A stretch of 64,000 nucleotides of DNA from Thermodesulfobacteriota bacterium (lineage in GTDB: Bacteria > Desulfobacterota > DSM-4660 > Desulfatiglandales > Desulfatiglandaceae), in assembly GCA_030837545.1 (NCBI GenBank), contig JAUPKI010000006.1:4665-68664 (forward strand), read 5' to 3'. Numbering within the stretch: the first letter of the stretch is position 1; each line of letters begins with the position of its first letter. Below, piece after piece: positions 48,807 to 62,213 of the stretch. The notes beneath the pieces are model-generated. The model saw nothing but the letters and a program-made list of their open reading frames with translations, searched no databases and was not told where the DNA came from. The translations under genes were made by a program, and so were the position numbers.

Positions 48807-48857
48807 GCACAGGGCCAACGAAAAAAGGTTAGACTCAAATGGACAACGGGGGGTTGA

Positions 48858-49432: not shown

Positions 49433-49652
49433 TCTAAAAGGCAGAGGCCTCGCGCAGAGGCGCCCAAGACGCGAAGTTTGAAAGGCAGCTTCCGTTGGAA
49501 TGCGGGGACGGATGTATGAACGCGCGTCCGACACAAACAAGCTGTTTTGGCTTTTTGTGTGTCGGGAGGCATGGGAATCAGGCGCCGTGATGTCTCGAAC
49601 ATCGATTGAAAACCCGTCGGAGTCACTCGCCAGCAAGGAAAGGACTGCATAA

Positions 49653-50621
49653 ATGTTCGTGCTTGGATTACAGGGGAGCCCGAGGATCAAAGGGAATACG
49701 GCCCTGTTGCTTTCGGCCTTTCTCGCTGAGGCGGAGCGGCTCGGCGTTCGCACAGAAGTCATTCATGTTGCCAAGAAGAAGATCACTCCATGCCAGGAGT
49801 GCGGCACCTGCGAAAAAAAGGGGTTCTGCCCGATTGACGATGACATGCAGGACATGTATCCGCTTTTTCGACAGGCCGACCTCATCGTCCTGGCGACGCC
49901 GATCTTTTTTTATGGCCCGACGGCCCAGATGAAGGCGGTGATCGACCGGTCCCAGGCCCTCTGGTCTCGAAAATACGCCCTCGGGCTGGAGGATCCCGGC
50001 AGGAAGTGGCGGCAGGGGTTCCTCCTTGCCGTGGGCGCTACCAGGGGAAAGAATCTCTTCGAGGGGACCATTCTGACGGCCAAATACTTTTTTGATGCGG
50101 TCGGGGCACGGTTTGAAGGGAGCCTCGGATACCGTCAGATCGAGCATTTGGGCGCCATACAAACCCATCCCACGGCCCTGAGTGATGCGGCGCAAAAGGC
50201 GAGGGAGCTGGTAACGCCTCTTATGGATAGAAAGAAGATTCTCTTCGTATGCACGGAAAACGCCTGCCGAAGCCAGATGGCTGCGGCCTTTGCCCAGATG
50301 CATGCTGGAGACCGGGTGGAGAGCCTCAGCGCAGGGACGGCGCCGGCAGCGGAGGTCAACCCGATCATGGTCGCGGTGATGGCGGAAAAAGGAGTGGACA
50401 TGGCCTATCGGAGGCCGGCGTCCATAGAGAGCGCCCTTGCCAGCGGAAGGCCGGACCTGGTGGTCTCCATGGGGTGCGTGGATGCCTGCCCTCTGTTCCC
50501 CGGCCTCCCTGTCGAACAATGGGGTCTGGCAGACCCAGCGGACCAGCCGATCTCCTTTATGCGGGAGATGCGGGACGCGGTCGAGAAGCGGGTGTTGAAT
50601 ATGCTGGAAACGATATATTAA
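49653..50621 (+). CDS. fusion protein: iron-sulfur flavoprotein-like NAD(P)H-dependent FMN reductase + low-molecular-weight phosphatase/ArsC-type arsenate reductase
   Basis: 322 aa. N-terminal half has GSPRIKGNT and a compact CQECGTCEKKGFC (CX2CX2CX5C) motif. C-terminal half has ILFVCTENACRSQMA (CX5R P-loop) and SMGCVDACP. Confidence 0.85.
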   Translation: MFVLGLQGSPRIKGNTALLLSAFLAEAERLGVRTEVIHVAKKKITPCQECGTCEKKGFCPIDDDMQDMYPLFRQADLIVLATPIFFYGPTAQMKAVIDRSQALWSRKYALGLEDPGRKWRQGFLLAVGATRGKNLFEGTILTAKYFFDAVGARFEGSLGYRQIEHLGAIQTHPTALSDAAQKARELVTPLMDRKKILFVCTENACRSQMAAAFAQMHAGDRVESLSAGTAPAAEVNPIMVAVMAEKGVDMAYRRPASIESALASGRPDLVVSMGCVDACPLFPGLPVEQWGLADPADQPISFMREMRDAVEKRVLNMLETIY

Positions 50622-50646
50622 CTGTCTCGTAATACTGTTGACATTT

Positions 50647-50712
50647 CCGTCATGCCGGACTCGATCCGGCATCCAGAAGCAGACTGGATTCCGGCTTCCG
50701 CCGGAATGACGG
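50647..50712. repeat. 66-bp palindromic element with two sub-hairpins
   Basis: Arms are ccgtcatgccggactcgatccggcatccag and ctggattccggcttccgccggaatgacgg. Each arm folds on itself (CCGGA...TCCGG; CCGGC...GCCGG). Confidence 0.8.
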
Positions 50713-50773
50713 GGTAAGGACAATTATGAGACTGTTAATAAAACCGATAACTACTTGAAAGGAGAGCGACAAT

Positions 50774-50932
50774 ATGGATAAATGGGTGTGTTCGGTATGC
50801 GGCTATGTGTATGATCCTGCAGATGGCGATCCGGATAACGGGGTCAAACCAGGGACAGCATTTGAGGACCTTCCGGATGACTGGACCTGTCCGGTCTGCG
50901 GCGCAACAAAGGATTTGTTTGGAAAGGAGTAA
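50774..50932 (+). CDS. rubredoxin (52 aa; below the ORF-track cutoff)
   Basis: My own translation: [58 protein letters not shown] upstream. The stop lies 3 nt before the FDP gene ATG. Confidence 0.93.
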
Positions 50933-50935
50933 GAG

Positions 50936-52120
50936 ATGAAACCGGTCGAGATCGCTGAAGGGATTTACTGGGTGGGCGTCATAGACTGGAATATTCGCGA
51001 CTTTCATGGATATTCCACCTATCAGGGAAGCACCTACAACGCCTACCTGATCATGGATGACAAGATCACCCTGATCGATACGGTCAAGAAGCCGTTTGCC
51101 GATGAACTGCTGGCCAATATCGGCGAGATCGTGGACCCGAAGAAGATCGATTATGTCATCAGCAACCACACCGAGATGGATCATTCCGGAGGACTTCCTA
51201 GGGTCATGCACAAGGTTGGAGAGGATAAGCCCCTCTACTGTTCCAAGATGGGGCAGAAGAACCTCTCAAGGCATTTCGCCCAGGCATGGAATTATCGGCC
51301 GGTGGAGGATGGGGGGCAACTCAACCTGGGCAAAAGGACCCTGACGTTCATGGAGACTCGAATGCTCCACTGGCCGGACAGCATGTTTACCTATGTGAAC
51401 GGAGAGGGCATCCTCTTCTCCAGCGATGGGTTTGGCCAGCACTATGCAGGGCTGGAGCGGTTTGACGACCAGGTAGGGGAAGCCATCATGCCCCATGCCA
51501 AGAAGTATTTCGCCAATATCCTGCTCCTGTACGCCCCCCTCATTCTCAAACTGGTGGATAAGGTGACCGAGATGGGCCTATCCATTCGAATGATCTGTCC
51601 TGATCACGGGATCATCTGGCGAACAGACCCTTCGAAGATCATTAAGGCCTATGTGGACTGGAGCGAGCAGAAGCCCAGGAGAAAGGCCGTGGTGGTCTAC
51701 GACACCATGTGGCACAGCACTGAGGCCATGGCCGAGGCCATTGCCAATGCGTTAGGGGAAGAGGGCGTGGATGCCCGACCGCTTCAACTCAGGACCAACC
51801 ACCGAAGCAACGTGATCACCGAGGTTCTGGACGCAGGCGCCGTGGTGGTGGGCTCTCCCACCCTCAACAACGGGCTGTTCCCCACGGTCAGCGATTTTCT
51901 CACCTATATGAAGGGCCTGAAACCCAAGAACAAGATCGGCGCCGCCTTTGGTTCCTACGGCTGGAGCGGCGAGGCGGTTAAGCTGGTCACTAAGGAACTT
52001 GAAGAGATGGGCTTTAGCATCATCGAACCGGGCGTCAGAGTCCAATACGTCCCGGATGACAAGGCCCTGGATGCATGTCGCGAGCTGGCAAAGAAGATCG
52101 CGGCGGCACTGCCGAAATAG
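50936..52120 (+). CDS. flavodiiron protein (rubredoxin:oxygen/NO oxidoreductase, FprA/ROO type)
   Basis: 394 aa. Metallo-beta-lactamase-like domain with the diiron motif HTEMDHSGG and a C-terminal flavodoxin domain (VVVYDTMWHSTE...GSPTLNN). Confidence 0.95.
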   Translation: MKPVEIAEGIYWVGVIDWNIRDFHGYSTYQGSTYNAYLIMDDKITLIDTVKKPFADELLANIGEIVDPKKIDYVISNHTEMDHSGGLPRVMHKVGEDKPLYCSKMGQKNLSRHFAQAWNYRPVEDGGQLNLGKRTLTFMETRMLHWPDSMFTYVNGEGILFSSDGFGQHYAGLERFDDQVGEAIMPHAKKYFANILLLYAPLILKLVDKVTEMGLSIRMICPDHGIIWRTDPSKIIKAYVDWSEQKPRRKAVVVYDTMWHSTEAMAEAIANALGEEGVDARPLQLRTNHRSNVITEVLDAGAVVVGSPTLNNGLFPTVSDFLTYMKGLKPKNKIGAAFGSYGWSGEAVKLVTKELEEMGFSIIEPGVRVQYVPDDKALDACRELAKKIAAALPK

Positions 52121-52122
52121 TA

Positions 52123-52257
52123 GGCGCAAGGCGTGAGGCGCAAGGTGTGGGGCAGGAGGCAAGAGCTGAAAGGTCAAAGCTGAAATCTCAACTAACCGGT
52201 ATCCGCTAACCGGCATCCAGTATCCAGTGTCAAGCATCCAGCAACCCGTATCCAGTT
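52123..52257 (+). repeat. degenerate word repeats (GGCGCAAGG-type, TCAAAGCTGAAA-type, then CATCCAG-type)
   Basis: Read directly between the FDP stop and the cytochrome gene start. Confidence 0.7.
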
Positions 52258-52271
52258 CCGGAGGTGTAAGA

Positions 52272-53573
52272 ATGGAAGAGAAGCGCATTTTTGCATGGAA
52301 GGGCCGAGTTCTGTTGCTGGCGATGATGGGGATGGTGATAATGGCCGCCGGGCAGGTCTTTGCGGAACCACCGCCAAAAACCGAAGACCCATGTATTGTC
52401 TGTCATCTCAAGGCCACGCCTGGTCTGGCGGCCGACTGGCAGGCAAGCCTCCATTCCCAAGAGGGGATCGGCTGTTCCGAGTGTCACGGTGACAAACACC
52501 AGACCAGCAAGGACTCGAACCTCGCCCGGTTACCCGATGAACATGTCTGCGCAGAATGCCATCAGGAGCAGTTTGACCAGTTTGCCAAGGGGAAGCACAA
52601 TCTCGGGTGGAGTTCCTTGAACGCCCTTCCCATCACCCACATGGAGCCGGATATCCTCATGGAAGGGGGAAAGGGATGCGGCGGCTGCCATAACATGGGG
52701 ATCAAGAGCGAGGCCCAGAAAAAAGACCAGTTGGCAAAAGGCTATCGCTACCAGAACAACTCGTGCGATGAGTGCCACACCCGCCACTCCTTCTCCAAGA
52801 AGGAGGCCCAGGATCCCAGGGCCTGCGAGCAGTGTCACATGGGATATGATCACCCCCAGTGGGAAATGTGGAGCAGCTCAAAGCATGGGACCCGCTACTT
52901 TGTGAAGCAGGGAGGCAACCTGCCGCAAAAGGCCCCGGCGCCCACGTGTCAGCTTTGTCACCTGCCAAACGGGACCCACGAAAACCGGACCGCCTGGGGC
53001 TTTCTGGGCGTGCGCCTGCCGTTGCCTGAAGACAAGCAATGGGCCGCCGATCGGGTGACCATTCTCAAGGCCTTAGGTGTTCTGGATCCGGAAACCGGCA
53101 AGCCCACGCCTCGGCTTGAGGCGGTCAAGACCCTTGATCTGGCCCGTCTGACCGAGGAGGCCTGGAAGACCGAGCGGGAGGCCATGGTCAAGCGGTGTAC
53201 GGCCTGTCATGCAGAGCAGTATGCCCGCCGGCAGCTTGAAATGGCCGATGAGATGATGAAACATGCGGACCGGCTGATGGCCCAGGGGATCGAAACTGTG
53301 GCTGGGCTCTACAAGGACGGCACTATCAAAAAGCCGGATCACTATGCCTTCGCCTATCCTGACTTTCTCTACTTCAAGCAGACCGGCGGTTCCTACATCG
53401 ATCAGGTCCTGTTTCGGATGTATATGAAGTACCGTATGCGCGCCTACCAGGGCCTCTTCCATGTCAATCCGGATTATGCCTACTGGTACGGCTGGGCTGC
53501 CATGACCAAGTCCCTTGGCGAGATCAAAGAACTGGCACAAGCCATGCGGGCGACGCACAAGCCCGCCAAGTAA
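52272..53573 (+). CDS. periplasmic octaheme c-type cytochrome, hydroxylamine oxidoreductase (HAO)-like family
   Basis: 433 aa from MEEKRIF (GGAGG upstream). Signal peptide ...MAAGQVFA. Eight CxxCH motifs: CIVCH, CSECH, CAECH, CGGCH, CDECH, CEQCH, CQLCH, CTACH. The spacing and the WSSSKHG motif resemble HAO-family proteins. Confidence 0.85.
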   Translation: MEEKRIFAWKGRVLLLAMMGMVIMAAGQVFAEPPPKTEDPCIVCHLKATPGLAADWQASLHSQEGIGCSECHGDKHQTSKDSNLARLPDEHVCAECHQEQFDQFAKGKHNLGWSSLNALPITHMEPDILMEGGKGCGGCHNMGIKSEAQKKDQLAKGYRYQNNSCDECHTRHSFSKKEAQDPRACEQCHMGYDHPQWEMWSSSKHGTRYFVKQGGNLPQKAPAPTCQLCHLPNGTHENRTAWGFLGVRLPLPEDKQWAADRVTILKALGVLDPETGKPTPRLEAVKTLDLARLTEEAWKTEREAMVKRCTACHAEQYARRQLEMADEMMKHADRLMAQGIETVAGLYKDGTIKKPDHYAFAYPDFLYFKQTGGSYIDQVLFRMYMKYRMRAYQGLFHVNPDYAYWYGWAAMTKSLGEIKELAQAMRATHKPAK

Positions 53574-53606
53574 GACATTTGGTGCAGCCTTTTTTCGTTG
53601 GCTATC

Positions 53607-53680
53607 CCCGTAGGTGCGAATTCATTCGCACAGCGTGGGCCTAACTGCTCTGAATGTGCGGATGAATCTGCACCTACCAG
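53607..53680 (-). repeat. composite REP/BIME-like element, inverted copy of 48735..48806
   Basis: Sequence cccgtaggtgcgaattcattcgcacagcgtgggcctaactgctctgaatgtgcggatgaatctgcacctaccag. Confidence 0.8.
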
Positions 53681-53785
53681 CCCCCGGCGCCTGGTTATTA
53701 GAGGGTCCGAACAACAAACATTACACAGAAAACATTTTCATGAGGTCGGCCACATGAGATTCGCTGATGATGAGGGCGTTCAGGG

Positions 53786-53980
53786 ATGAGGCAGGTCCCG
53801 GTCATTGATATCCGCGAGTGCTCGGATTGCGGGACGTGCCTGGAACTCTGTCCCGCTGTTTTCAGGAGAAATGATGTGTCCGGGTTCATTGAAATCCTGG
53901 AACTTCCCGAATACCCTGAAGATGAGATTCGGGAGGCCATCAGTTGCTGTCCCAGAGATTGTATAACCTGGGAGGAATGA
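53786..53980 (+). CDS. small ferredoxin (single [3Fe-4S]/[4Fe-4S] cluster type)
   Basis: 64 aa. CSDCGTCLELCP ... CCPRDCI. Confidence 0.85.
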   Translation: MRQVPVIDIRECSDCGTCLELCPAVFRRNDVSGFIEILELPEYPEDEIREAISCCPRDCITWEE

Positions 53981-54018
53981 GAGGTGAGGGATGCGACCGA
54001 GAGCGGGGGGAGAGTGAC

Positions 54019-54957
54019 ATGGAGATAGGAATGATCGGTCTGGGACGGATGGGGATGAATATGGCCAAACGTCTCATGATCGGCGGCCACCGGGTGGTGG
54101 CCTATAACCGGACACCCCGAAAGACAGATATTCTGGCGCGGGAGGGGGCTGTCGCCGCCTATTCCCTCGCAGAGTTGGTCGAGAACCTGCCGCCGGCCCG
54201 CGTTGTATGGATCATGCTGCCCGCAGGTCAACCTGTGGACGACCACCTGGATCAGCTCAGAGAGATCCTCTCCCCCGGAGATGTCGTCGTTGATGGGGGA
54301 AACACCTACTACAAAGACGACCTCCGCAGGCGGCCCCTCCTTTCGGAGAAGGGGATCTCTCTGGTGGATGTGGGCGTGAGCGGCGGCATTTGGGGGCTCG
54401 AAAACGGTTACTGCCTGACTGCGGGGGGACCGGCCGATTGTTGCAGGGAAATTGAACCGGTCTTCAAGACCCTTGCGCCTCCGGGCGGCTATCTCTACTG
54501 CGGGGGCACAGGCGCGGGCCACTTTGTCAAAATGGTCCATAACGGCATCGAATACGGGATGATGCAGGCCTTTGGCGAGGGGTTTGAGATCCTTGAGGCC
54601 TCCCCCTATGCGGGCTCGCTGGACCTGGCAGAGGTGGCACGGGTGTGGAATAACGGGAGCGTCATCCGATCGTGGCTCCTGGAGCTGGCCCAGGACCTGT
54701 TCTCAAGAGATGGAGGTCTCACGGATATAGAAGGATATATCGAGGACTCGGGAGAAGGGCGATGGGCTGTTCAGCAGGCGATAGAGACAGGGGTGGCCGC
54801 GCCGGTCATGGCCCTTTCCCTGATCCGCCGGTTGCGCTCACGGAACCAGGCGCCCTTTTCCGACAGGGTCGTTACCGCCCTCAGGAGAGAATTCGGGGGT
54901 CATTCGGTCCAACCGGCGTCATCTGATGAGAGGGAACCCAATGAAGCCGGAAGATGA
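54019..54957 (+). CDS. gnd: 6-phosphogluconate dehydrogenase, decarboxylating (short form)
   Basis: About 312 aa from MEIGMIGLGRMGMNMA (Rossmann motif). Contains GGNTYYKD, VSGGIWG and GAGHFVKMVHNGIEYG. Confidence 0.92.
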   Translation: MEIGMIGLGRMGMNMAKRLMIGGHRVVAYNRTPRKTDILAREGAVAAYSLAELVENLPPARVVWIMLPAGQPVDDHLDQLREILSPGDVVVDGGNTYYKDDLRRRPLLSEKGISLVDVGVSGGIWGLENGYCLTAGGPADCCREIEPVFKTLAPPGGYLYCGGTGAGHFVKMVHNGIEYGMMQAFGEGFEILEASPYAGSLDLAEVARVWNNGSVIRSWLLELAQDLFSRDGGLTDIEGYIEDSGEGRWAVQQAIETGVAAPVMALSLIRRLRSRNQAPFSDRVVTALRREFGGHSVQPASSDEREPNEAGR

Positions 54958-56521
54958 ACAGGCCGATCCCGGGTTGCTGGACTTGGGGACCGCTACGACC
55001 GGGACCGAGCGCTCTATGGCAACGTCCATCGGAGAAAAGGACCCCGAGTCCTTCACCCTTGTGATTATTGGGGCCTCCGGGGACCTCACGGAACGGAAAA
55101 TCGTCCCTGCCCTCTTTGATCTCTACCGCAAGGGGGAGATCCCGGCCCCGTTCCGGGTGGTGGGATGCGCACGGACCCATCTGGACGACCAGGGATTCAG
55201 AGAAAAGATGCGGAAGGCCCTGGGGAAAAAGACCCGTTCGAGCGATGCCGAATGGAAGGCCTTTGCCGAAAGGCTCCACTACTGGTCCATCGACTATTCG
55301 GATGAGTCCTCCTTTGTCGCATTGGGAACATTTCTGAACAGTGGGGTTCAGGGCCAGGGCATGGCGCAGAACCGGATCTTTTATCTGGCCATCCCCCCGT
55401 CCCTCTGTGAGTTGACCGTCGGGATGATCGGACGGTCGGGTCTTGCGGCCGAGGGGACAGAAGGATATGGCTGGTCCAGAATCGTGATTGAAAAGCCGTT
55501 CGGCCGTGATCTGAAAAGCGCTGCAGCCTTAGACAGGAGTCTTCATGAACACTTCAACGAGCATCAGATCTTCAGGATGGATCACTATCTGGCAAAGGAG
55601 ACAGTCCAGAATATCCTGATGTTCCGTTTTGCCAATGCCATCTTTGAGCCCATATGGAATCGACGATATGTGGACAGCGTCACGATCCGGGCGCTGGAGA
55701 CCCTGGGGGTCGAACACAGGGCGGGGTATTATGAACAGGCCGGGGTCCTGCGGGACATGTTCCAGAATCACATGATGCAGCTTCTGGCCCTCATGGCCAT
55801 GGACCCTCCCTCGGCCTTTGAGGCGGACAGGGTCCGGGATGAGAAGGTCAGGGTATATCGAAGCCTCAGGCCGTTTCCGGTGGGAAGGCTGAACGACTAT
55901 CTGATTCTGGGCCAATACGGGCCCGGCGTGGTGCGGGGTAAAGAGGTCCCGGGTTATCGGGAGGAACCGGGTGTCAGACCCACTTCGCTGATCCCGACCT
56001 TTGCATCCATGAGGGTCTTTATTGATAACTGGCGATGGCAGGGCACCCCCTTTTATCTCACTTCAGGGAAGCGGATGGGAGAAAAGGTCACCAATATCAC
56101 CATCCAGTTTAAGGAGGTCCCCCACTCCGTATTCCGAAATGTTCTTGGGGAGCACATCGCCGTCAACTGTCTGACCATGGGGATCTATCCGGACGAGCGG
56201 ATATCTCTCATGTTTCAGACCAAACATCCCGGCCCCCGGGTGTCTCTCACGCCGGTCACCATGGATTTCCGGTATGCCCAGGGCCAGGAAGACGCCCTGA
56301 TGGAGGCATACGAAAAGCTGTTGCTGGACTGCATGCTGGGGGACCAGATGCTGTTTTTGCGTCAGGACAGCGTGGAACTCTGCTGGTCGTTCCTGACGCC
56401 GATCCTGAATGCCTGTGAGACGTGCAGCGACCGGTCGGAAATGCTCCTGTTCTACGAATCCGGGACCCTCGACGCCGAGGCTGTGGAGCGACTGAACCGG
56501 ACCCGGATGGTGGGCATCTGA
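54941..56521 (+). CDS. zwf: glucose-6-phosphate 1-dehydrogenase
   Basis: Motifs GASGDLTERK, RMDHYLAKE and EKPFG. The start is uncertain (54926, 54941 or 55016). Confidence 0.93.
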   Translation: MKPEDEQADPGLLDLGTATTGTERSMATSIGEKDPESFTLVIIGASGDLTERKIVPALFDLYRKGEIPAPFRVVGCARTHLDDQGFREKMRKALGKKTRSSDAEWKAFAERLHYWSIDYSDESSFVALGTFLNSGVQGQGMAQNRIFYLAIPPSLCELTVGMIGRSGLAAEGTEGYGWSRIVIEKPFGRDLKSAAALDRSLHEHFNEHQIFRMDHYLAKETVQNILMFRFANAIFEPIWNRRYVDSVTIRALETLGVEHRAGYYEQAGVLRDMFQNHMMQLLALMAMDPPSAFEADRVRDEKVRVYRSLRPFPVGRLNDYLILGQYGPGVVRGKEVPGYREEPGVRPTSLIPTFASMRVFIDNWRWQGTPFYLTSGKRMGEKVTNITIQFKEVPHSVFRNVLGEHIAVNCLTMGIYPDERISLMFQTKHPGPRVSLTPVTMDFRYAQGQEDALMEAYEKLLLDCMLGDQMLFLRQDSVELCWSFLTPILNACETCSDRSEMLLFYESGTLDAEAVERLNRTRMVGI

Positions 56522-56580
56522 TGGCTCATGGCTGATAGCTCATGGACAGAGCAGCTTATCAGCTCAACAGCTTATGAACT
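56521..56580 (+). repeat. degenerate word repeats (GCTCATGG / AGCTTATSA type) after the zwf stop
   Basis: Read directly: atggctcatggctgatagctcatggacagagcagcttatcagctcaacagcttatgaac. Confidence 0.6.
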
Positions 56581-56621
56581 TACCATCTTTTTTGCCTGGC
56601 AGTCAGAGGACCCGAACCTCT

Positions 56622-57149
56622 ATGGCCGACCCTCACGAACATATGCTCGGCCCTGCCCAATTCCTGGTGGAAAACGTGGACCTGTTGCCAAGGGGGCGGG
56701 CCCTGGATCTGGCCATGGGGTACGGCCGCAATGCAATCTTCCTGGCCCGGGCGGGTTTTGAGGTGGAAGGGATTGATATTTCACCAGAGGCCACGGCCGG
56801 GGCCTTGAAGGCCGCAAATGAGGCCGGGGCTCGCCTGAGCGTTCGCGTGGCCGATCTGGAGGACGGCTACGTGATTGAACCGGGGGCCTATGATGTGATC
56901 ATCTGCTTCAATTATCTCCATCGGGCCTTGATCCCTGAGATAAGGAAAGGCCTTCGCAGCCGCGGGATGGTGGTGTACGAAACCTTCATCGTGGATCAGG
57001 CCCGATTTGGCAGGCCCAGGAATACGGATCACCTGCTTAAGCATAATGAACTGCTGGATCTGTTTCGTGATTTCCGCTGTCTCCGGTATCATGAGGGGTT
57101 GATGGAGACCCACAGGGCCGTTGCCGGCATCATAGCGGAAAAACCCTGA
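56622..57149 (+). CDS. class I SAM-dependent methyltransferase (TehB-like)
   Basis: About 175 aa from MADPHEH. SAM motif I ALDLAMGYGRNAIFLARAGFEVEGIDIS and post-I/II pattern YDVIICFNYLHR. The track ORF starts at 56574. Confidence 0.8.
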   Translation: MADPHEHMLGPAQFLVENVDLLPRGRALDLAMGYGRNAIFLARAGFEVEGIDISPEATAGALKAANEAGARLSVRVADLEDGYVIEPGAYDVIICFNYLHRALIPEIRKGLRSRGMVVYETFIVDQARFGRPRNTDHLLKHNELLDLFRDFRCLRYHEGLMETHRAVAGIIAEKP

Positions 57150-57265
57150 TGCAGAATAACCGCAACCCATCCCGCCAATATAGGCGGGACTCACACAAAG
57201 ACACGAAGACCCAACGTTTTTATAACCACATGCATTTGTTCCTAAAACACAGGAGGTAAGCAACC

Positions 57266-58099
57266 ATGCAGTGGAAACAGTTCATTACGCCCGTGGCCAG
57301 TCTGGATGCAGATGCGGCCAGGGCATTTATAGGCGACCATAAGGAAGGGACCTATACCCTTCTCGATGTTCGACAACCCGGGGAGTACGAAAAAGCCCGG
57401 ATCCCCGGGGCCAGACTGGTGCCTCTGCCCGAACTCGCTGATCGGCTCGAGGAACTGGACCCGGACCGGCCTGTCATCGCCTACTGAGCGGCCGGCGGCC
57501 GCAGCCGTGCTGCTGCGCAGCTTCTTGCCGGCAAGGGCTTCAGGGAGGTCTACAACCTCAAGGGGGGCATCAGGGCCTGGAACGGTCTGACAGCAGTGGG
57601 GCCTGCCGAGATGGGGATGCCTTTCCTAAGAGGCGATGAGACCACGCAGGAGATCATCGTCCTCGCATACGGGATGGAAGAGGGATTGAGAGGCTTTTAC
57701 ACCGCTGTCAGCGAACGGACAGATGACCCGGATGTGGCCGGCCTTGCCGATAAGCTGTCGGAGATAGAGGAACGCCACAAGGAACGTCTCTTCGCCCTCT
57801 ACGTGTCCATGCATTCCACCATTGCCCTTCGAGAGACCTTTGAATCCGATATTGTGACCGGGATCATGGAAGGTGGTTTCACCACAGAGGAGTTTATGGA
57901 TCATAACAGGGATGCCATGACGACCGTGCCCGATCTCCTCAGTATCGCCATGATGCTGGAGACCCAGGCCCTGGACCTCTACATGAGATACTCTGAAAAG
58001 ATCCAGGACGCGCCTGGTAAGGGCGTGCTCTATGATCTGGCAGAGGAAGAAAAGGGGCATCTGACCCGCTTGGGCCGCTTGATGGAAAAAAAGGTCTGA
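57266..58099 (+). CDS. candidate selenoprotein: rhodanese domain (TGA at the catalytic-Cys position, 57485..57487) fused to a diiron ferritin-like/rubrerythrin-like domain
   Basis: Track ORFs 57266..57487 and 57596..58099 share one frame with only this TGA between them. Read-through gives ...DRPVIAY-U-AAGGRSRAAAQLLAGKGFREVYNLKGGIRAWNG... followed by E / ExxH / E / ExxH helices. A SECIS-like hairpin follows the TGA. Confidence 0.65.
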
Positions 58100-58689
58100 T
58101 GGCAACCTATACCGGCATCAATCATCTGGCCCTGGCCACCCGAGACATGGATATGACGATCCGTTTCTGGCGGGACCTACTCGGCATGCGGCTGGTGGCA
58201 GGGCTTGGACGGCCGGGATACCGGCATTACTTCTTTGAGATATCGGGCCATGATATGATCGCCTTCTTCGAGTGGCCCGATTGCGAAAAAATCCCTGAAA
58301 AGGATCATGGGGTCCCTGCCAAGGGTCCCTTTGCATTCGACCACGTCTCATTTGAGGTGAAGACGGATGAAGACCTGTGGGAATTGAAGGCGAAGTTTGA
58401 GGCCGCCGACATCTGGGTCTCCGAGGTGATGGATCACGGTTTCATCCATTCCATCTATGCCTTTGATCCCAACCATATTCCGATTGAGTTCAGCGTCCCG
58501 GTGCCGGGCGTGGACATCCGGAACCATCCAAAAATGAAGGACAGAGGACCGACGACCCTGTCCCGGGAAGGGCCTGACCCCCAACCCGGCATCTGGCCGA
58601 CAGGACCGGGGGCGGCGCCGCTCGAAGACCGCAGGGTCTATCCTGGCGAGGGGATGGTCCTGGTCGAAAATGATGAGGATGAATCCTGA
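58099..58689 (+). CDS. VOC (glyoxalase/bleomycin resistance/dioxygenase) family protein
   Basis: 196 aa. Starts INHLALATRDMDMTIRFWRDLLGMRL, with a paired beta-alpha-beta-beta-beta module pattern. ATGA-type overlap with the upstream gene. Confidence 0.85.
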   Translation: MATYTGINHLALATRDMDMTIRFWRDLLGMRLVAGLGRPGYRHYFFEISGHDMIAFFEWPDCEKIPEKDHGVPAKGPFAFDHVSFEVKTDEDLWELKAKFEAADIWVSEVMDHGFIHSIYAFDPNHIPIEFSVPVPGVDIRNHPKMKDRGPTTLSREGPDPQPGIWPTGPGAAPLEDRRVYPGEGMVLVENDEDES

Positions 58690-58704
58690 CGGCGGCAGGC
58701 TGGC

Positions 58705-59484
58705 ATGGCGTCCGTGAAACAGGCCCCGAGGTCAAGATTGAAAACCAGCGCTGCAGATTCCTCGACATTCAGTGGCCGTCAACTGAAAACCAGGGTCCGC
58801 GACATCCTGACCTCCCTGGAGATGGCACGGGCACTGGATGCCTTAGGTCAGATGCCTCCCCGTCGGGTGATCAATCCCCTGTTTTCCCTCCTCTACCAGG
58901 GGGATGACCCGCTCAGGTGGGCCGCCATTACGGCCATGGGCCGAGTCGTGGCGCGGCTTGCCGATGAAGACAGGGAGGCGGCCAGGGTCGTCATGCGACG
59001 GCTCATGTGGAACCTCAACGACGAATCCGGGGGAATCGGATGGGGGTCGCCAGAGGCCATGGGGGAGATTCTGGCCTGCCACGAGGGCCTTGCCGAAGAA
59101 TATGCCCCTATACTGATATCCTACGCAAGGGAGGACGGCAATTATCTGGAATACGAGATGCTTCAGCGGGGCCTCCTCTGGGGGATTGCGCGGCTTGCCC
59201 AGGCAAGGCCCCGCTTGGTTCAGGATGCGGTCCCGCATTTGATGGCCTGCCTTAAATCCGGAGACCCGGTTGTCAGGGGGATGGCTGCATCCGTCATGGG
59301 CCTGCTCGAGGCCCAGGCGGCCCGCAAGGCACTTGAGCTATTGACGGCGGACGATGCCGAATTTCAAACATGGGCGGGTTACAGGCATGTCAAACGACGG
59401 GTGAAGGATATGGCGAAGACGGCGATCGAGAGGCTGTCAGCTTCAGAGAGTAACGGGTCAAACAGGGAAGGAGGGTTATCATGA
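58705..59484 (+). CDS. HEAT-repeat-like helical protein of unknown function
   Basis: 259 aa. All-helical repeats (DPLRWAAITAMGRV, DPVVRGMAASVMGLL). Confidence 0.65.
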   Translation: MASVKQAPRSRLKTSAADSSTFSGRQLKTRVRDILTSLEMARALDALGQMPPRRVINPLFSLLYQGDDPLRWAAITAMGRVVARLADEDREAARVVMRRLMWNLNDESGGIGWGSPEAMGEILACHEGLAEEYAPILISYAREDGNYLEYEMLQRGLLWGIARLAQARPRLVQDAVPHLMACLKSGDPVVRGMAASVMGLLEAQAARKALELLTADDAEFQTWAGYRHVKRRVKDMAKTAIERLSASESNGSNREGGLS

Positions 59485-59990
59485 ATGTACGGTATGCCAA
59501 TCCCTACGTCATCGGCGTGCTGCTGGGGTTTATCCTGTTGTTTTCCTTTTACACCATGGGCAGAGGGGTCGGCTCCTCCGAAACCTTTTCCAGGATTGCA
59601 GCCGCGGGGGTCGATCTGACGGCCCCGCAGCACGCAGAGGAGGGGCACTATTTTTCGAAGTACCTATCCAAAAAGCGTTCTCCTCTCATGGCTTGGCTGG
59701 TTTTTCTGACTTTAGGGGCAGGACTCGGGGGCCTGTTTTCGGCCTTTATCTCCCATAGAATCAAGGGAGAGGTGGTGCGGGGACCTTTGATGGGAGTCTC
59801 TTCCCGCTTGTGGCTTGCACTGCTCGGCGGAATACTCTCCGGGTTTGCCGCCAGGCTGGCCAGGGGGTGCACCAGCGGACAGGCCCTGACCGGGGCATCC
59901 GAGCTGGCCTTCGGGAGCTGGGTCTTCATGTTCTCCATCTTTGCCGGGGCATACGCGACGGCATACTTCTTCAGAAAGGAGTGGCTGTGA
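59481..59990 (+). CDS. YeeE/YedE family sulfur(/selenium)-compound transporter component
   Basis: 169-aa membrane protein with the conserved motif LARGCTSGQALTG. 4-nt overlap with the upstream gene. Confidence 0.85.
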   Translation: MNVRYANPYVIGVLLGFILLFSFYTMGRGVGSSETFSRIAAAGVDLTAPQHAEEGHYFSKYLSKKRSPLMAWLVFLTLGAGLGGLFSAFISHRIKGEVVRGPLMGVSSRLWLALLGGILSGFAARLARGCTSGQALTGASELAFGSWVFMFSIFAGAYATAYFFRKEWL

Positions 59991-60799
59991 TGGGACCGTT
60001 GTATAAGTTCGGATGGTTTGACTTTGCCTACAGCCTGCAGATCGCAGGACTCATCGGCTTCTTTTTCGGATTTGTCCTGGAAAGGGCCGGGTTTGGAGAT
60101 GCAAGGAAGCTGACGGCCATCTTTTATCTGAGAGACTTTGCCGTACTAAAGGTCATGTTCACCGCCATTGTGGTGTGCATGATAGGCCTTTTATATTTTT
60201 CCGTCTTCGGGTGGATCGATCTCAGCCGAGTCTATATCCTCCCCACCTACATCTGGCCGCAGACCGTGGGCGGCCTTGTCATGGGCGTCGGGTTTGTCAT
60301 GGGAGGATACTGCCCCACCACCTCCGTGGTGGCCACGGTCTCGGCCAAGCTGGACGGTCTCGTCTTTATCGGGGGGATGATCCTGGGCTCATTCATCTTT
60401 GCTGAACTCTTCCCCCTGCTCAAGGGCTTCTATGAAGCTGGTTCCATGGGCGCTGTCCGGCTTTCGGATGTCCTGAAGATCAACGCCGGGCTGATCGCCC
60501 TCTTCGTATGCCTGATGGCGGTTGGGGCCTACTGGGTCGTTGAAAAGGTGGAACAGAGGTTTGGAGACAGGGGGACCCTTCCAGGCGGTTCCAGAAGGAT
60601 CAAGGGGGCGGCCGCCGCCCTCCTCATCGTCCTTGGCCTGATTCTGGCTATTGTCAATCCGGACCGGATTGCTGCCAAACGGGCGACGGCGTCGCCGGTT
60701 GAAGCGGTGAAAAAGGGTGAAGCCACGGAGCCCATAGCCCCTAAAGCAGAAAAACCCGCCTCAATCCATTTCAAGATTGTGGAAGATGAAGGATGCTGA
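59990..60799 (+). CDS. YeeE/YedE family transporter component (second half-size paralogue) with extended C-terminal tail
   Basis: About 269 aa from MGPLYKF (TGATG overlap with the previous gene). Motif MGGYCPTTS. The track ORF start at 59810 lies inside the previous gene. Confidence 0.85.
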   Translation: MGPLYKFGWFDFAYSLQIAGLIGFFFGFVLERAGFGDARKLTAIFYLRDFAVLKVMFTAIVVCMIGLLYFSVFGWIDLSRVYILPTYIWPQTVGGLVMGVGFVMGGYCPTTSVVATVSAKLDGLVFIGGMILGSFIFAELFPLLKGFYEAGSMGAVRLSDVLKINAGLIALFVCLMAVGAYWVVEKVEQRFGDRGTLPGGSRRIKGAAAALLIVLGLILAIVNPDRIAAKRATASPVEAVKKGEATEPIAPKAEKPASIHFKIVEDEGC

Positions 60800-60976
60800 T
60801 GTGTCGATATTGCCCGCAGACATGCGATTTCCTGACGCTTGGGCGTCACAAGATAATGACCTCATCAGGAGTGTTTCCATTCAACGGTCTCGATTTACGG
60901 GTTTTTTCAAATTGTCAGCGATCGCCTGCTATTTTGTGCACGACTTTTGCGTGCAAAATTTTTTTAAAGAGGCTCA

Positions 60977-61005
60977 TTGACTTCGCCGATATTATGAATT
61001 ATATT
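60977..61005 (+). promoter_or_regulatory. near-consensus sigma-70 promoter (TTGACT-N17-TATATT)
   Basis: Read directly: -35 at 60977..60982 and -10 at 61000..61005, with exactly 17 nt between them. Confidence 0.5.
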
Positions 61006-61011
61006 TAAGGC

Positions 61012-61356
61012 AACTGGTCGGGTGTGTGAAGCGCCAACAAACAACTTTAACACACGATTATAAACCATGAGACGGCCCACGGCCTCCAAAGGTTATATTT
61101 AAAAAAGAAAGTTGAGACGGCGCTTGACCCCCACAGGATTCTCGGATGAACGTGCATCTTTTCGGTTCGCAATCTTCAAGCACAGAAATAAAGCGATTGC
61201 ATCAGTGAAAACAACGGCATTTCGGGAATCCATTTAATCATGATGGCGGCCTGGTAACCAGCAGACCAACCCCTTGACGAAACCCAAATATCTTTCCATA
61301 ATCGAAACCCCTTATCCAAGGCAGGGCCTTCCTTCGGGCCCTGCCTTTCTTTTTCT
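61012..61356 (+). ncRNA. candidate unclassified non-coding transcript (about 345 nt) between a strong promoter and an intrinsic terminator
   Basis: No + strand ORF of 60 aa or more; only mini-ORFs of 5-15 codons. AT-rich relative to the rest of the window. No signature of a known RNA family recognised. Confidence 0.3.
61318..61356 (+). terminator. Rho-independent terminator
   Basis: Perfect 9-bp GC-rich stem GGCAGGGCC (61320..61328) / GGCCCTGCC (61337..61345), 8-nt loop, then TTTCTTTTTCT. Confidence 0.75.
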
Positions 61357-61724
61357 GCAACGTCCATATCCGGTCAGCAAACACCCCATCCGGCGCATCT
61401 GGGCTTCTTTATCTCGAGGGCTGTCGCTCTGCCAGAAAACAACGTGAATCGTCATTGCATATGGTCCTGTTCCCCACACCTGAAACGGCCTGTTGCCTAT
61501 CCTGGGCATTTTGGTTATACTCTCTACCATTCACAATCAGGGAAGATACCCATGCGGTTGATTTTCTCTCCTGGGGTTTGAACCCTTCGCCCATACATAC
61601 TTGTATTGGCAGCATCGGTCATTCTGAACGGCAATCATTCCCGGTGGGTCAGGAGGATATGAGGTGGACATGGGGTAGCCCTCATCGTCTGGAACGAGGT
61701 AGGATAACCCTACAGGAAGGTTCC

Positions 61725-61877
61725 ATGAACCTGGCCCAACTGATGATCGACATCGACATCCGTCGGCCGGAGCATCCGGCTGTCATCTTCGGCGGTCGAC
61801 AGGCGAGCTATTCGGATCCGGACCCGCGCATCGATGCGCTGGCCTGGGGACTCGAGGTACGATTTCACTTTCGTTGA
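61725..61877 (+). pseudogene. N-terminal remnant of an AMP-dependent synthetase/ligase (50 codons)
   Basis: AGGAAGG RBS, then MNLAQLMIDIDIRRPEHPAVIFGGRQASYSDPDPRIDALAWGLE... This resembles the usual start of acyl-CoA ligases (PxxPAxIFxxxxxSYxxLxxRxxxLAxGL) but stops after 50 codons, about 90 bp before the inverted-repeat element. Confidence 0.35.
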
Positions 61878-61966
61878 TGCAGGGGTTCGAAAATCAGACA
61901 GAACCGGGTTTGCGATTGACACCCCAGGCTGAGTTCCTTATACCTGTGCCATCAATTATGGTAAGA

Positions 61967-62213
61967 GTTCACAGGTTCGGGTTCAACGTTTCCCGCTGCA
62001 AAGCGGGATTAGGGGCAAGAGCATTATTAAAGACCCGAATCGCAGGCAACGGGGTGCTGCGTTGTTAACATACGTCCGTTCGGCAACCTATTTGCTGGTT
62101 CGAAGTGATGAATCCGGGGCCGCTTATGGCATAAAGGCCTCCAAAATGGGATCAGGGGACCCAGAATGCAACCTTGAATCCCGCTGCAGCGGGAAACCTT
62201 TGAACCCGTGAAC
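61967..62213. mobile_element. MITE-like non-autonomous element with about 40-bp imperfect terminal inverted repeats
   Basis: Left arm gttcacaggttcgggttcaacgtttcccgctgcaaagcgggatt (61967..62010). Right arm aatcccgctgcagcgggaaacctttgaacccgtgaac (62177..62213), which is its reverse complement apart from small indels. No ORF in the 166-bp interior. Confidence 0.45.

Follow-up and report, generated by a model that had tools for sequence, protein, structure and literature searches.

Six neighbouring genes on one strand (56622-60799) of a 64,000-nucleotide stretch of contig, hereafter the window, from a strictly anaerobic, sulfate-reducer-like Desulfobacterota bacterium combine a methyltransferase, a rhodanese fused to a diiron domain, a VOC protein, a HEAT protein and a split YeeE pair. 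Do they form a self-contained route for sulfur or selenium, as the original prediction of a chalcogen-trafficking operon proposed, or the end of a larger gene array?

Gene array and upstream stretch

ORF coordinates bear out the prediction that the six genes run in one direction and that the last five are tightly joined, by overlaps of 1-4 nt or, from VOC to HEAT gene, a 15-nt gap (Table 1). The junction at 58099, described earlier as an ATGA-type overlap, is in fact TGATG with a 1-nt overlap, as is that between YeeE_A and YeeE_B; ATGA, a 4-nt overlap, links the HEAT gene to YeeE_A. The methyltransferase (MT) uses the same start ATG (56622) as its homologues and is separated from the rhodanese-rubrerythrin gene by 116 nt, a gap of only about 22-25 nt in relatives. 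The predicted domains, including the diiron fusion and the split YeeE pair, were recovered by Pfam in all six genes (TehB/Methyltransf_25, Rhodanese+Rubrerythrin, Glyoxalase/VOC, HEAT_2 and twice Sulf_transp).

Position 56622 is not the beginning of the array. Genes on the same strand precede it, the ferredoxin gene (53786-53980) overlapping gnd and gnd overlapping zwf by 32 nt, and no strong terminator-like hairpin was found within 53786-60799. The same-strand stretch 44626-60799, about 16 kb, encodes three rubredoxins, a rubrerythrin, a desulfoferrodoxin, a flavodoxin, a thioredoxin, a glutaredoxin, an FTR subunit and a flavodiiron protein. The third rubredoxin gene stops 4 nt before the flavodiiron gene, forming a pair of the rub-roo type, and the flavodiiron protein matches the NCBIfam flavorubredoxin-type model with an E-value of 2e-139, under the equivalog cut-off. 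The zwf gene is a classic oxidative-stress gene, part of the SoxRS regulon of Escherichia coli. Several gaps of 100-420 nt inside this stretch could hold separate promoters, and a sigma-54 promoter search gave no signal above chance; we infer co-transcription, and co-regulation of the whole from position only.

Table 1. Features of the same-strand stretch and its 3' flank (window positions)
Feature	Position	Strand	Basis or remark
Rubredoxin	44626-44835	+	
Rubrerythrin	44962-45534	+	Pfam
Desulfoferrodoxin	45727-46101	+	Pfam
166-aa helical protein	46125-46625	+	
Zn-ribbon protein	46778-47119	+	
Flavodoxin	47132-47572	+	Pfam
Rubredoxin	~47813-47974	+	
Thioredoxin-2	47996-48445	+	Pfam
Glutaredoxin	48858-49109	+	Pfam
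FTR catalytic subunit (FTR-beta)	49106-49432	+	Pfam
FMN_red+LMWPc fusion	49653-50621	+	Pfam
Rubredoxin	50774-50932	+	translation, CxxC...CPxCG motifs
Flavodiiron protein (O2/NO reductase)	50936-52120	+	Pfam ODP + Flavodoxin_1
Exported octahaem cytochrome c, distantly HAO/HDH-like	52227-53573	+	eight CxxCH, signal peptide
Small single-cluster ferredoxin, Fer4_13	53786-53980	+	usual direct upstream partner of HEAT elsewhere
6-phosphogluconate dehydrogenase-like gene (gnd)	53977-54957	+	start overlaps ferredoxin stop
Glucose-6-phosphate dehydrogenase (zwf)	54926-56521	+	Pfam G6PD_N/G6PD_C on L084 orthologue
Class I SAM methyltransferase (MT), TehB-like fold	56622-57149	+	Pfam, NCBIfam, structure match
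Sec rhodanese + rubrerythrin-like diiron four-helix bundle fusion	57266-58099	+	277 aa, Sec74
In-frame UGA read as selenocysteine, rhodanese catalytic Cys position	57485-57487	+	motif U-A-A-G
SECIS-like hairpin	57497-57522	+	begins 12 nt 3' of UGA; local dG -11.1 kcal/mol
VOC/glyoxalase-fold metalloprotein	58099-58689	+	Pro/Gly-rich tail of ~65 aa
HEAT-repeat alpha-solenoid, DVU0298 family	58705-59484	+	NCBIfam NF045662
YeeE_A, half-size YeeE/YedE protein, PmpA-like	59481-59990	+	Pfam Sulf_transp
YeeE_B, half-size YeeE/YedE protein, PmpB-like	59990-60799	+	Pfam Sulf_transp
YeeE_B C-terminal I-V-E-D-E-G-C	60776-60796	+	invariant in homologues
First strong intrinsic-terminator-like hairpin 3' of array	61318-61347	+	12-bp stem, then T run

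Identity of the proteins

The rhodanese-rubrerythrin gene forms one frame that only a single TGA interrupts, and its expected Sec/Cys character was upheld: the codon at this position is TGA in 51/80 homologous genome loci and TGC or TGT (Cys) in 29/80, full-length homologues align a Cys to it, and the closest database homologues end there. These comparisons confirm the predicted Sec reading. Of 52 Sec forms, 90% have a hairpin with a dG of -8 or lower at the SECIS-like position, as against 59% of 29 Cys forms (p = 0.002, kinship of sequences ignored). Because so many Cys forms share it, and because it falls inside the conserved coding stretch GGRSRAAAQ, this excess is only modest evidence for a SECIS.

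The diiron domain is rubrerythrin/ferritin-like, has no rubredoxin domain and carries ligands (E138, E168/H171, E232, E262/H265) that are invariant across the family. Similar rhodanese domains occur in persulfide dioxygenase-rhodanese and persulfide-reductase fusions, and the nearest solved structures are PDO-rhodanese fusions (3TP9, BpPRF), Npsr, CoADR-RHD and CoA-persulfide reductase. Such fusions provide a precedent for the suggested passage of a chalcogen from rhodanese to fused metal domain, and a sulfur-handling sub-role within the stretch is plausible. The neighbourhood of the wider family consists of redox and stress genes, namely FA_hydroxylase (18 loci), nitroreductase-family (11), NADH:rubredoxin reductase (9), FTR-beta (7) and glutaredoxin (6) genes as well as rubrerythrins. 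The conserved co-localisation expected of an operon was largely missing: YeeE_A lies within 10 kb of the rhodanese-rubrerythrin gene at 1/72 genome loci, VOC directly downstream at 3/74, and HEAT and MT are neighbours at 6/72 and 8/73, all these loci belonging to relatives at 60% identity or more.

The two halves of full-length YeeE have separate counterparts here, the C-terminal one in YeeE_A and the N-terminal one in YeeE_B, an arrangement described for PmpA/PmpB (PMC11582611). The pair retains two cysteines aligned to Cys91 and Cys293, both indispensable in TsuA; the second lies in the GCTSG motif of YeeE_A. YeeE_B has an extension of about 100 aa with hydrophobic segments, and its terminus (...DEGC-COOH) is kept behind a variable linker in 17/17 complete homologues. 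Neither of the transport types proposed for the pair agreed with NCBIfam, which rejects it as TsuA (29-32 bits against cut-offs of 400-645) and as selenium-type YedE (44.5 against 350 and 26.4 against 200). The proposed tellurite/selenite methyltransferase fared likewise, MT scoring 57.8 bits against the TehB equivalog cut-off of 303; its best solved structure match is Slr1183.

Two evolutionary modules

The gene order is found again on five or more independent contigs, with protein identities of 68-92%, and is more than chance; it is complete in L002, L084, L086 and L090 and partial in L001, L003 and L087-L089. NCBIfam places the HEAT protein in the uncharacterised DVU0298 family (NF045662, 247.6 bits, cut-off 75), and its AF2 model (pLDDT 86.9) matches only generic HEAT/ARM structures. 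In counts over HEAT-anchored metagenome loci, the genes that recur around it in diverse Desulfobacterota are those for a small ferredoxin (within 1 kb upstream at 34/75 loci, about half of HEAT loci having none), a flavodiiron O2/NO reductase (upstream at 24/41), multihaem cytochromes (16 loci) and, less often, the split YeeE pair, directly 3' at 14/59 loci, including 9/50 where HEAT is less than 65% identical. FMN_red-LMWPc (20 loci), FTR-beta (13), cytochrome bd (10) and peroxiredoxin (9) are further recurrent neighbours, as are rubrerythrin and DsrE-like proteins; at L081, HEAT stands without any of these. Two independent architectures carry HEAT-YeeE_A-YeeE_B, Rd-FDP-octahaem-Fd-HEAT-YeeEAB (L082) and Rd-Rbr-Dfx-Zn ribbon-HEAT-YeeEAB-cupin (L165). 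In another setting, TPM-LemA-Smr-YeeEAB-radical SAM (L166-L168), the YeeE pair has neither HEAT nor stress genes beside it.

VOC, rhodanese-rubrerythrin, MT and zwf adjoin HEAT only at a HEAT identity of 65% or more (5/6 to 6/8 loci); below 65%, they were found beside it at none of the eligible loci (0/23 to 0/53, by gene). The six genes are a mix of two modules. One, widespread, is (rubredoxin)-flavodiiron protein-(octahaem cytochrome)-ferredoxin-HEAT, to which the PmpAB-like pair is often added downstream, and it is to this much wider ferredoxin/flavodiiron/multihaem cytochrome module, rather than to a chalcogen operon, that HEAT and YeeE belong. The other, gnd-zwf-methyltransferase-Sec-rhodanese/rubrerythrin-VOC, is clade-specific and stands here between the ferredoxin and HEAT genes. 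Intermediate states exist as FDP-Fd-HEAT (L094) and FDP-Fd-gnd-zwf-MT-HEAT (L095), and the close relatives L003 and L088 keep MT-Rhd/Rbr-VOC-HEAT with the YeeE pair missing. The nearest relatives bear the label Desulfobacteraceae or Ca. Desulfacyla.

A probable oxygen-stress island and the rival explanations

On balance we favour, as the rather more probable account, that an oxidative-stress defence island of about 16 kb, in which both modules are combined, has the six genes at its 3' end. Given the content of these surrounding 16 kb, a framing in terms of oxygen, peroxide and thiol stress suits the cluster better than S/Se import. A dedicated operon, in which the YeeE pair imports S or Se, the Sec/Cys rhodanese receives it, the diiron centre provides redox chemistry and a TehB-like enzyme methylates the product, seems improbable, although every needed domain type is present and tightly packed, the rhodanese domain is of the persulfide-processing kind, the YeeE pair has both TsuA-essential cysteines plus the invariant C-terminal one, 8/46 Sec-form loci have MT directly 5' of the rhodanese gene and the full order is found on about five contigs. 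Against it stand the single genome locus of 72 that unites rhodanese-rubrerythrin and YeeE, the separate partnership of HEAT and YeeE with ferredoxin and flavodiiron protein, the loss of the YeeE pair in L003 and L088 and of rhodanese-VOC in L095, the sub-cut-off MT, and the screen of ORFs across the surrounding 18 kb, which turned up neither a TusA/TsuB/YedF-like carrier nor selD nor any cys gene. What remains of chalcogen trafficking is its parts (the domains, a Sec/Cys rhodanese with its diiron fusion, the split YeeE pair and the operon-like packing); the self-contained import pathway gives way to a probable stress island.

The genes might instead share no function, being a patchwork of unrelated cassettes inserted repeatedly at a permissive ferredoxin-HEAT spot and acting independently. 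The nested states (FDP-Fd-HEAT, FDP-Fd-gnd-zwf-MT-HEAT, full set), the variable presence of the YeeE pair among close relatives and the different neighbours of each family elsewhere fit such a history, which we nevertheless regard as unlikely: four junctions have overlapping start and stop codons, the MT-rhodanese gap shrinks in relatives, and a redox/thiol-stress theme, zwf included, suits every inserted gene. Very little probability attaches to a selenium-utilisation cluster with the YeeE pair as a YedE-type importer supplying selenoprotein synthesis, the Sec-rhodanese included. YedE has been tied to selenium use by comparative genomics (PMC9312934), the adjacent enzyme is a selenoprotein, and GCTSG of YeeE_A sits where a Sec-containing YeeE/YedE form has GUxSG (PMC13188914); yet the pair scores far under the selenium YedE cut-offs, it keeps recurring beside HEAT, ferredoxin and flavodiiron genes, Cys replaces Sec in 29/80 members of the rhodanese-rubrerythrin family, yedF, selD, selA and selB were absent from the screened island ORFs, and no tRNA gene of any kind, hence no selC, was found in the window. 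A thiosulfate-assimilation unit of the TsuA/TsuB type, suggested by Sulf_transp membership and the two aligned cysteines, is just as hard to credit in view of the TsuA scores, the missing cysteine-synthesis genes nearby and the lack, among the ORFs screened, of a TsuB/TusA-like partner, which is described as essential for TsuA (PMC11073785).

Under the oxidative-stress island reading, the six genes would be the tail of a larger oxygen-stress array. When O2 enters the sulfidic habitat, Zwf and Gnd would make NADPH, electrons would pass via rubredoxin, ferredoxin and flavodoxin to the flavodiiron protein for O2/NO reduction, to rubrerythrin and to desulfoferrodoxin, and Trx, Grx and FTR would repair thiols. 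The PmpAB-like pair may be a heterodimeric channel for small sulfur species, with the C-terminal Cys of YeeE_B as a possible carrier arm, and the HEAT protein a docking scaffold joining ferredoxin to these partners; no close relative of MT, VOC, HEAT or the YeeE pair has been characterised, and their model roles are therefore guesses. By-products peculiar to sulfide-rich cells would be handled by the Sec-rhodanese/diiron fusion, whose selenol (thiol in Cys forms) may accept sulfane sulfur or react with peroxide, with a redox step at the adjacent diiron centre, much as, in fusions with persulfide dioxygenase or CoA-persulfide reductase, a rhodanese domain serves the metal or flavin domain of its partner.

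The stress-gene array and its transcription

The six genes, which encode a methyltransferase (MT), a rhodanese-rubrerythrin fusion, a VOC protein, a HEAT-repeat protein and a pair of YeeE/YedE proteins (YeeE_A and YeeE_B), form the end of a long array of stress genes. In the six genes a clade-specific block is joined with a ferredoxin-HEAT-(YeeE pair) module that is conserved widely and linked to a flavodiiron protein (FDP). All genes between 44626 and 60799 are located on the forward strand. The array starts with rubredoxin, rubrerythrin, desulfoferrodoxin, a helical 166-aa protein and a Zn-ribbon protein, continues with flavodoxin, a second rubredoxin, thioredoxin-2, glutaredoxin, FTR-beta and an FMN_red-LMWPc fusion, and ends with a third rubredoxin, FDP, an exported octahaem cytochrome, a small ferredoxin (Fd), gnd, zwf and the six genes. 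The three rubredoxin genes fall within 6.3 kb and were first seen as a DNA repeat of 69-160 nt; the third stops 4 nt ahead of the flavodiiron gene.

Coordinates of genes and sequence features in the window
Feature	Position (nt)	Strand	Basis or remark
PAS/sigma-54 activator	41915-43249		ahead of the array
First rubredoxin	44626-44835	+	
Canonical rubrerythrin paralogue	44962-45534	+	
Tandem 8-nt repeat	45531-45596		rubrerythrin-desulfoferrodoxin gap
Second rubredoxin	~47813-47974	+	
Inverted element, one copy	48742-48828		upstream of Grx-FTR
FMN_red (iron-sulfur flavoprotein-like) + low-molecular-weight phosphatase/ArsC-like fusion	49653-50621	+	
Third rubredoxin	50774-50932	+	
Flavodiiron protein (FDP)	50936-52120	+	
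Octahaem cytochrome c	52227-53573	+	
Inverted element, other copy	53588-53673		upstream of ferredoxin
Small ferredoxin (Fd)	53786-53980	+	
Methyltransferase (MT), 175 aa	56622-57149	+	ORF, Pfam
Rhodanese-rubrerythrin	57266-58099	+	277-codon frame with a single TGA at 57485-57487
Hairpin past the UGA	57497-57522		
VOC protein	58099-58689	+	Pfam
HEAT-repeat protein	58705-59484	+	Pfam
YeeE_A, half-size YeeE/YedE	59481-59990	+	Pfam
YeeE_B, half-size YeeE/YedE	59990-60799	+	Pfam
C-terminal extension of YeeE_B	60491-60796	+	
Terminus I-V-E-D-E-G-C-COOH of YeeE_B	60776-60796	+	
Stretch without credible ORF	60800-62200		1.4 kb
Terminator-like hairpin	61318-61347		
Short frame	~61725-61860		resembles AMP-binding enzyme N-terminus by eye

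The original prediction described the six genes as a possible chalcogen (S/Se) trafficking operon. Its domain names were all confirmed by Pfam and its account of tight packing holds, the sole slip being the junction at 58099, which is TGATG and not an ATGA-type overlap. From the rhodanese-rubrerythrin gene to YeeE_B, the first and last junctions are TGATG overlaps of 1 nt; between them come, in order, a gap of 15 nt and an ATGA overlap of 4 nt. The transcription unit likely begins at or before the ferredoxin gene, and not at 56622, since Fd-gnd and gnd-zwf are joined by overlaps, no strong terminator-like hairpin was found within 53786-60799 (the first lies beyond YeeE_B), and the gap between MT and the rhodanese-rubrerythrin gene, 116 nt in the window, is about 22-25 nt in relatives. 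The PAS/sigma-54 activator gave reason to scan for sigma-54 promoters, which returned 51 matches to the pattern where 65 were expected, none well placed, and a sigma-70 promoter scan gave no excess over the shuffled expectation.

The array resembles the rbo-rub-roo genes of Desulfovibrio in having a canonical rubrerythrin, a desulfoferrodoxin and a rubredoxin-flavodiiron pair on one strand; a further likeness is that NADH:rubredoxin reductase recurs beside the wider rhodanese-rubrerythrin family. It differs from the classical arrangement in the addition of zwf/gnd, MT, VOC, HEAT and the membrane pair.

The rhodanese-rubrerythrin protein and the clade-specific block

The in-frame TGA of the rhodanese-rubrerythrin gene aligns with the catalytic Cys of full-length homologues within the motif (U/C)-A-x-G-G-R-S, and the closest database homologues are ORFs cut off at that position. 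Among the matches listed, 80 genome loci encoding relatives 50-82% identical to the window protein were compared; codon 74 is TGA in 51/80 and TGC or TGT in 29/80. The gene of Desulfonema magnum 4be13 (L037) has a codon other than TGA at the active site and is a Cys form. Residue 74 (Sec74/Cys74) is invariant as the loop nucleophile in the alignment of homologues, and sequence identity persists past the UGA through the rubrerythrin domain. From its sequence, the gene is thus predicted to be a selenoprotein gene. A hairpin begins 12 nt past the UGA; its dG is -8 kcal/mol or lower in 90% of the Sec forms, but also in 59% of the Cys forms. Of the folding tests only this position-specific comparison was informative, and it hints at a SECIS element, although the hairpin sits within coding sequence that is itself conserved and phylogeny was left uncorrected; the 71 nt around the UGA folded as one piece gave no signal (z-score 0.13). 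A tRNA scan of the whole window found none, hence no tRNA-Sec, Rfam gave no match at gathering thresholds over the same span, and the ORFs that were screened between 41.9 and 63.6 kb included no sel gene.

Among predicted selenoproteins, the Sec rhodaneses with a UxxG motif already form an established family, which has many members in Deltaproteobacteria/Desulfobacterota (PMC1976440, PMC9312934, PMC13188914). The protein shares with the COG0607 UxxG selenoproteins the Sec at the rhodanese catalytic position and the U-x-x-G motif. The only NCBIfam rhodanese selenoprotein model to match, NF041203 (CxU form), scored 35.9 bits, well short of its cut-off of 115. Two of the papers cited above, both reviews, searched for 'rubrerythrin', made no mention of the fusion, and a literature search on rhodanese, rubrerythrin and selenocysteine found nothing relevant, while a JGI label on homologues reads 'rhodanese-related sulfurtransferase/rubrerythrin'.

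Both domains were recovered by Pfam, the rhodanese (PF00581) with 78.3 bits (cut-off 22.2) and the rubrerythrin (PF02915) with 41.8 (cut-off 22.8). Alignments of 16-35 sequences show no variation at the diiron ligands E138, E168, H171, E232, E262 and H265; their pattern, E, ExxH, E, ExxH, is of the four-helix bundle type and is that of a ferritin-like diiron carboxylate protein. In the AF2 model of P0001, a Cys homologue 78% identical to the window protein (pLDDT 84.9), long helices span residues 127-151, 155-182, 221-245 and 249-276. The model matches solved structures through the rhodanese domain only, best of all persulfide dioxygenase-rhodanese fusions, Npsr, CoADR-RHD and CoA-persulfide reductase (28-40% identity, rmsd 1.1-1.9 A over about 97 residues), and the diiron half resembles by sequence TM1526-type ferritin-like proteins and encapsulated ferritins. 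The likeness to BpPRF, the CstB-like 3TP9, Npsr, CoADR-RHD and CoAPR consists in the fusion of a single-Cys rhodanese with a catalytic domain of redox or metal type; however, their partner is a mononuclear-iron metallo-beta-lactamase or a flavoprotein, whereas here it is a diiron four-helix bundle. A further difference from such persulfide-processing fusions is the catalytic Sec of most members here, as read from their sequences. With rubrerythrin the protein shares the invariant E/ExxH/E/ExxH set, but it carries an N-terminal Sec-rhodanese in place of a rubredoxin-like FeS4 domain: it ends after the bundle without a RUBY_RBDX match, which the canonical paralogue does give.

The chalcogen prediction implied a dedicated route from import to the rhodanese, and took conserved co-localisation of these families as its own test. 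When the 80 genome loci were searched with the window's proteins, the full set recurred, among the matches listed, only in the closest relatives (L001-L003, 81-82% identity; order complete in L002, partial in the others). Again among the matches listed, YeeE_A lies within 10 kb of the rhodanese-rubrerythrin gene at 1/72 loci, VOC directly 3' at 3/74, HEAT within 10 kb at 6/72 and MT within 2.5 kb upstream at 8/73, and every locus with such a neighbour is at least 60% identical, with none below 60%. The dedicated route fails on this distribution, and the sulfur theme is kept as a sub-function. MT precedes 8/46 Sec-form and 0/27 Cys-form genes among the matches listed, a contrast confounded by phylogeny because all positives belong to the clade of 60-82% identity.

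When all adjoining ORFs at these loci were clustered and named by Pfam, other partners recurred among the matches listed: a membrane FA_hydroxylase-family protein directly downstream (18 loci), a nitroreductase-family protein directly upstream (11), NADH:rubredoxin reductase (9), the catalytic subunit of ferredoxin-thioredoxin reductase (7), glutaredoxin (6), and also rubrerythrins and a hybrid-cluster/CODH-like protein. These recurrent neighbours place the family in a context of redox and thiol stress, not of transport.

As regards the other members of the block, 'TehB-like fold' is a fair description of MT and the name TehB is not. The Pfam TehB model is passed (42.8 against 20.4) and Methyltransf_25 scores higher, but all three NCBIfam TehB equivalogs were failed (57.8 against 303, 47.5 against 219.5 and 41.8 against 218). 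The best solved match is Slr1183, of unknown function (E 4.8e-15), with TehB homologues at 3e-8 to 1e-5. In TehB a C-terminal His-Arg pair is implicated in substrate binding; 'ETHRA' of MT aligns with 'ELHKT' of 3M70, the H. influenzae TehB homologue. The VOC protein belongs to its superfamily by its PF00903 score (55.7 against 20.6) and was rejected as a FosA, FosB or glyoxalase equivalog (at most 38 bits against 140-305); its best solved match, 9U42, is named 'Glyoxalase' without further qualification.

The HEAT protein and the YeeE pair

The HEAT protein is a member of the DVU0298 family (NCBIfam NF045662, 247.6 bits against 75, model positions 1-212 of 213), to which no function is attached and which counts more than 5,900 homologues. 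A literature search on DVU0298 yielded nothing relevant, the sole paper with the locus tag meaning a CO dehydrogenase in an apparently unrelated use. The modelled protein is an alpha-solenoid (pLDDT 86.9), and PDB sequence and fold searches returned generic or designed HEAT/ARM repeats only (TM-scores up to 0.58). Residues 102-121 form an invariant loop, W-N-L-N-D-E-S-G-G-I-G-W-G-S-P-E-A-M-G-E, with pLDDT below its flanks; this loop is likely a binding or active site.

Neighbourhoods of HEAT were examined at 80 metagenome loci among the matches listed and in four further contexts. Among the matches listed, a Fer4_13 small ferredoxin lies within 1 kb upstream, often overlapping, at 34/75 loci, an FDP farther upstream at 24/41, and the YeeE pair directly 3' at 14/59, or at 9/50 where HEAT is less than 65% identical to that of the window. 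The FMN_red-LMWPc fusion is the directly upstream neighbour at 20 of the loci listed; multihaem cytochromes (16), FTR-beta (13), cytochrome bd oxidase (10), peroxiredoxin (9), rubrerythrin and DsrE-like proteins also recur. VOC, rhodanese-rubrerythrin, MT and zwf flank HEAT only at 65% HEAT identity or more, at 5/6 to 6/8 loci, and below that value at 0/23 to 0/53 eligible loci, depending on the gene (all among the matches listed).

Intermediate arrangements were found, from FDP-Fd-HEAT (L094) through FDP-octahaem-Fd-HEAT-YeeEAB (L082, L093, L120) to FDP-Fd-gnd-zwf-MT-HEAT (L095), together with the full FDP-(octahaem)-Fd-gnd-zwf-MT-Rhd/Rbr-VOC-HEAT-YeeEAB of the window, L084, L086 and L090. 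In the simplest reading, Fd and HEAT were ancestrally adjacent and the gnd-zwf-MT-Rhd/Rbr-VOC block lies between them in one clade.

YeeE_A and YeeE_B are always found as a pair, with 76-91% identity over the best 120 of about 2,600 homologues. One context reads Rd-Rbr-Dfx-Zn ribbon-HEAT-YeeEAB-cupin (L165); another, without HEAT and unrelated to stress, reads TPM-LemA-Smr-YeeEAB-radical SAM (L166-L168). In the register of Pfam Sulf_transp, YeeE_A corresponds to model positions 177-309, the C-terminal half, and YeeE_B to 4-154, the N-terminal half. Cys91 and Cys293 are indispensable residues of TsuA, and Dahl and co-workers described the PmpA/PmpB arrangement and proposed a heterodimer (PMC11582611, PMC7449682). 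The GCTSG Cys of YeeE_A aligns with Cys293, and the GGYC Cys of YeeE_B was matched by eye to the AGGC(91) motif; adjacent half-size genes with equivalents of both cysteines make this a split pair of the PmpA/PmpB type. Both proteins, however, exceed the ~130 aa quoted in PMC11582611, and unlike PmpA/PmpB and TsuA-TsuB, YeeE_B adds an extension of ~100 aa ending in an invariant ...DEGC-COOH. This extension comprises further hydrophobic segments followed by a variable Lys/Pro/Glu-rich linker, and DEGC-COOH is kept in 17/17 complete homologues; by analogy, its Cys could be a swinging-arm carrier cysteine. A PDB sequence search with YeeE_B gave no match.

Two more specific identities for the pair were rejected. 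As TsuA it scored 29-32 bits against cut-offs of 400-645, no TusA/TsuB-like gene occurs among the neighbours scanned, and where TsuA-TsuB has such a partner, the recurrent cytoplasmic neighbour here is the DVU0298-family HEAT protein. As a selenium-related YedE/FdhT it scored 44.5 against 350 (NF033796) and 26.4 against 200 (TIGR04112), and no YedF-like gene is present beside it. A rhodanese, a YeeE and a TehB-like gene should not be read as a selenium/tellurium pathway on domain names alone.

Proposed functions and minor sequence features

In E. coli zwf is an oxidative-stress gene of the SoxRS regulon, so Zwf and Gnd probably supply NADPH here. In Desulfovibrio gigas the burning of polyglucose serves O2 reduction along a rubredoxin-ROO chain, so the small redox proteins here probably feed FDP, rubrerythrin and desulfoferrodoxin. 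Other rhodanese fusions suggest, by analogy, that the protein with the Sec-rhodanese and diiron domains may handle peroxide, sulfane sulfur or both. The PmpAB-like pair may conduct a small sulfur species, and the HEAT protein may act as a docking scaffold.

Strict anaerobes at oxic-sulfidic boundaries face both oxygen and the reactive sulfur that oxygen forms from sulfide, and to our knowledge genes against reactive sulfur are poorly known in sulfate reducers. A more ambitious reading, which we consider rather unlikely, is that the oxygen-defence operons of sulfide-producing anaerobes include a dedicated and hitherto undescribed means of coping with reactive sulfur species. The Sec-rhodanese would capture sulfane sulfur and the fused diiron centre would oxidise or reduce it, which, if true, would make the protein an unrecognised diiron counterpart of persulfide dioxygenase. 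The PmpAB-like heterodimer would move sulfur species across the membrane via its C-terminal ...EDEGC 'swinging-arm' Cys, the DVU0298-family protein would couple the dedicated ferredoxin to the rhodanese/PmpAB-like machinery, and the TehB-like MT and the VOC protein would dispose of sulfide/selenide or thiol adducts. In the cst operon of S. aureus (cstR-tauE-cstA-cstB-sqr), a comparable combination of rhodanese-metalloenzyme fusions and a membrane sulfur-oxyanion transporter relieves sulfide and sulfane-sulfur stress; its metal-domain and transporter families differ from those found here, we know of no CstR-like regulator or SQR in the cluster, and the latter is instead embedded among O2-defence genes. 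A metatranscriptome paper on sulfate-reducing bacteria under periodic oxygen mentions neither rhodanese nor the pentose phosphate pathway.

Sec-rhodanese selenoproteins, split YeeE pairs and oxygen-defence islands of sulfate reducers are already known kinds. In the literature searched, the diiron partner of a Sec-rhodanese, the invariant C-terminal Cys of a PmpB-like protein and the tie between the DVU0298 HEAT family and the genes for ferredoxin, flavodiiron protein and YeeE appear to be new; a search for co-mention of YeeE, flavodiiron and HEAT found nothing relevant. Three widespread uncharacterised families, with about 2,000 rhodanese-rubrerythrin and about 2,600 PmpAB-like homologues in the database beside those of HEAT, are now set in an oxygen-stress context. 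Ferredoxin, flavodiiron protein, and rubredoxin with its reductase are their suggested partners, which offers defined proteins and assays to biochemists.

Several further features were observed. The exported octahaem cytochrome, distantly hydrazine/hydroxylamine-oxidoreductase-like, lies amid otherwise cytoplasmic stress genes; HEAT genes elsewhere are also flanked by multihaem cytochromes, some merely 22-26% identical to it. An element of ~90 nt occurs twice, inverted, each copy with two GTGCG-N8-CGCAC palindromes (8 matches in the window against 1.4 expected). A shared operator was rejected, as 0/168 related loci have a match, and the palindromes are therefore taken as a genome-specific (REP-like) repeat, with a local operator as the alternative. 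The gap between rubrerythrin and desulfoferrodoxin holds ~8 tandem copies of the unit AGGGATTC. The stretch without credible ORF after YeeE_B contains the terminator-like hairpin, and the short frame within it is possibly a gene remnant. Small ORFs without Pfam match lie at 44036-44392, 44431-44613 and 46125-46625. GC content falls to 0.515 over 44-48 kb, and 44-46 kb shows a strong positive GC skew (0.24) with an AT skew of 0.17.
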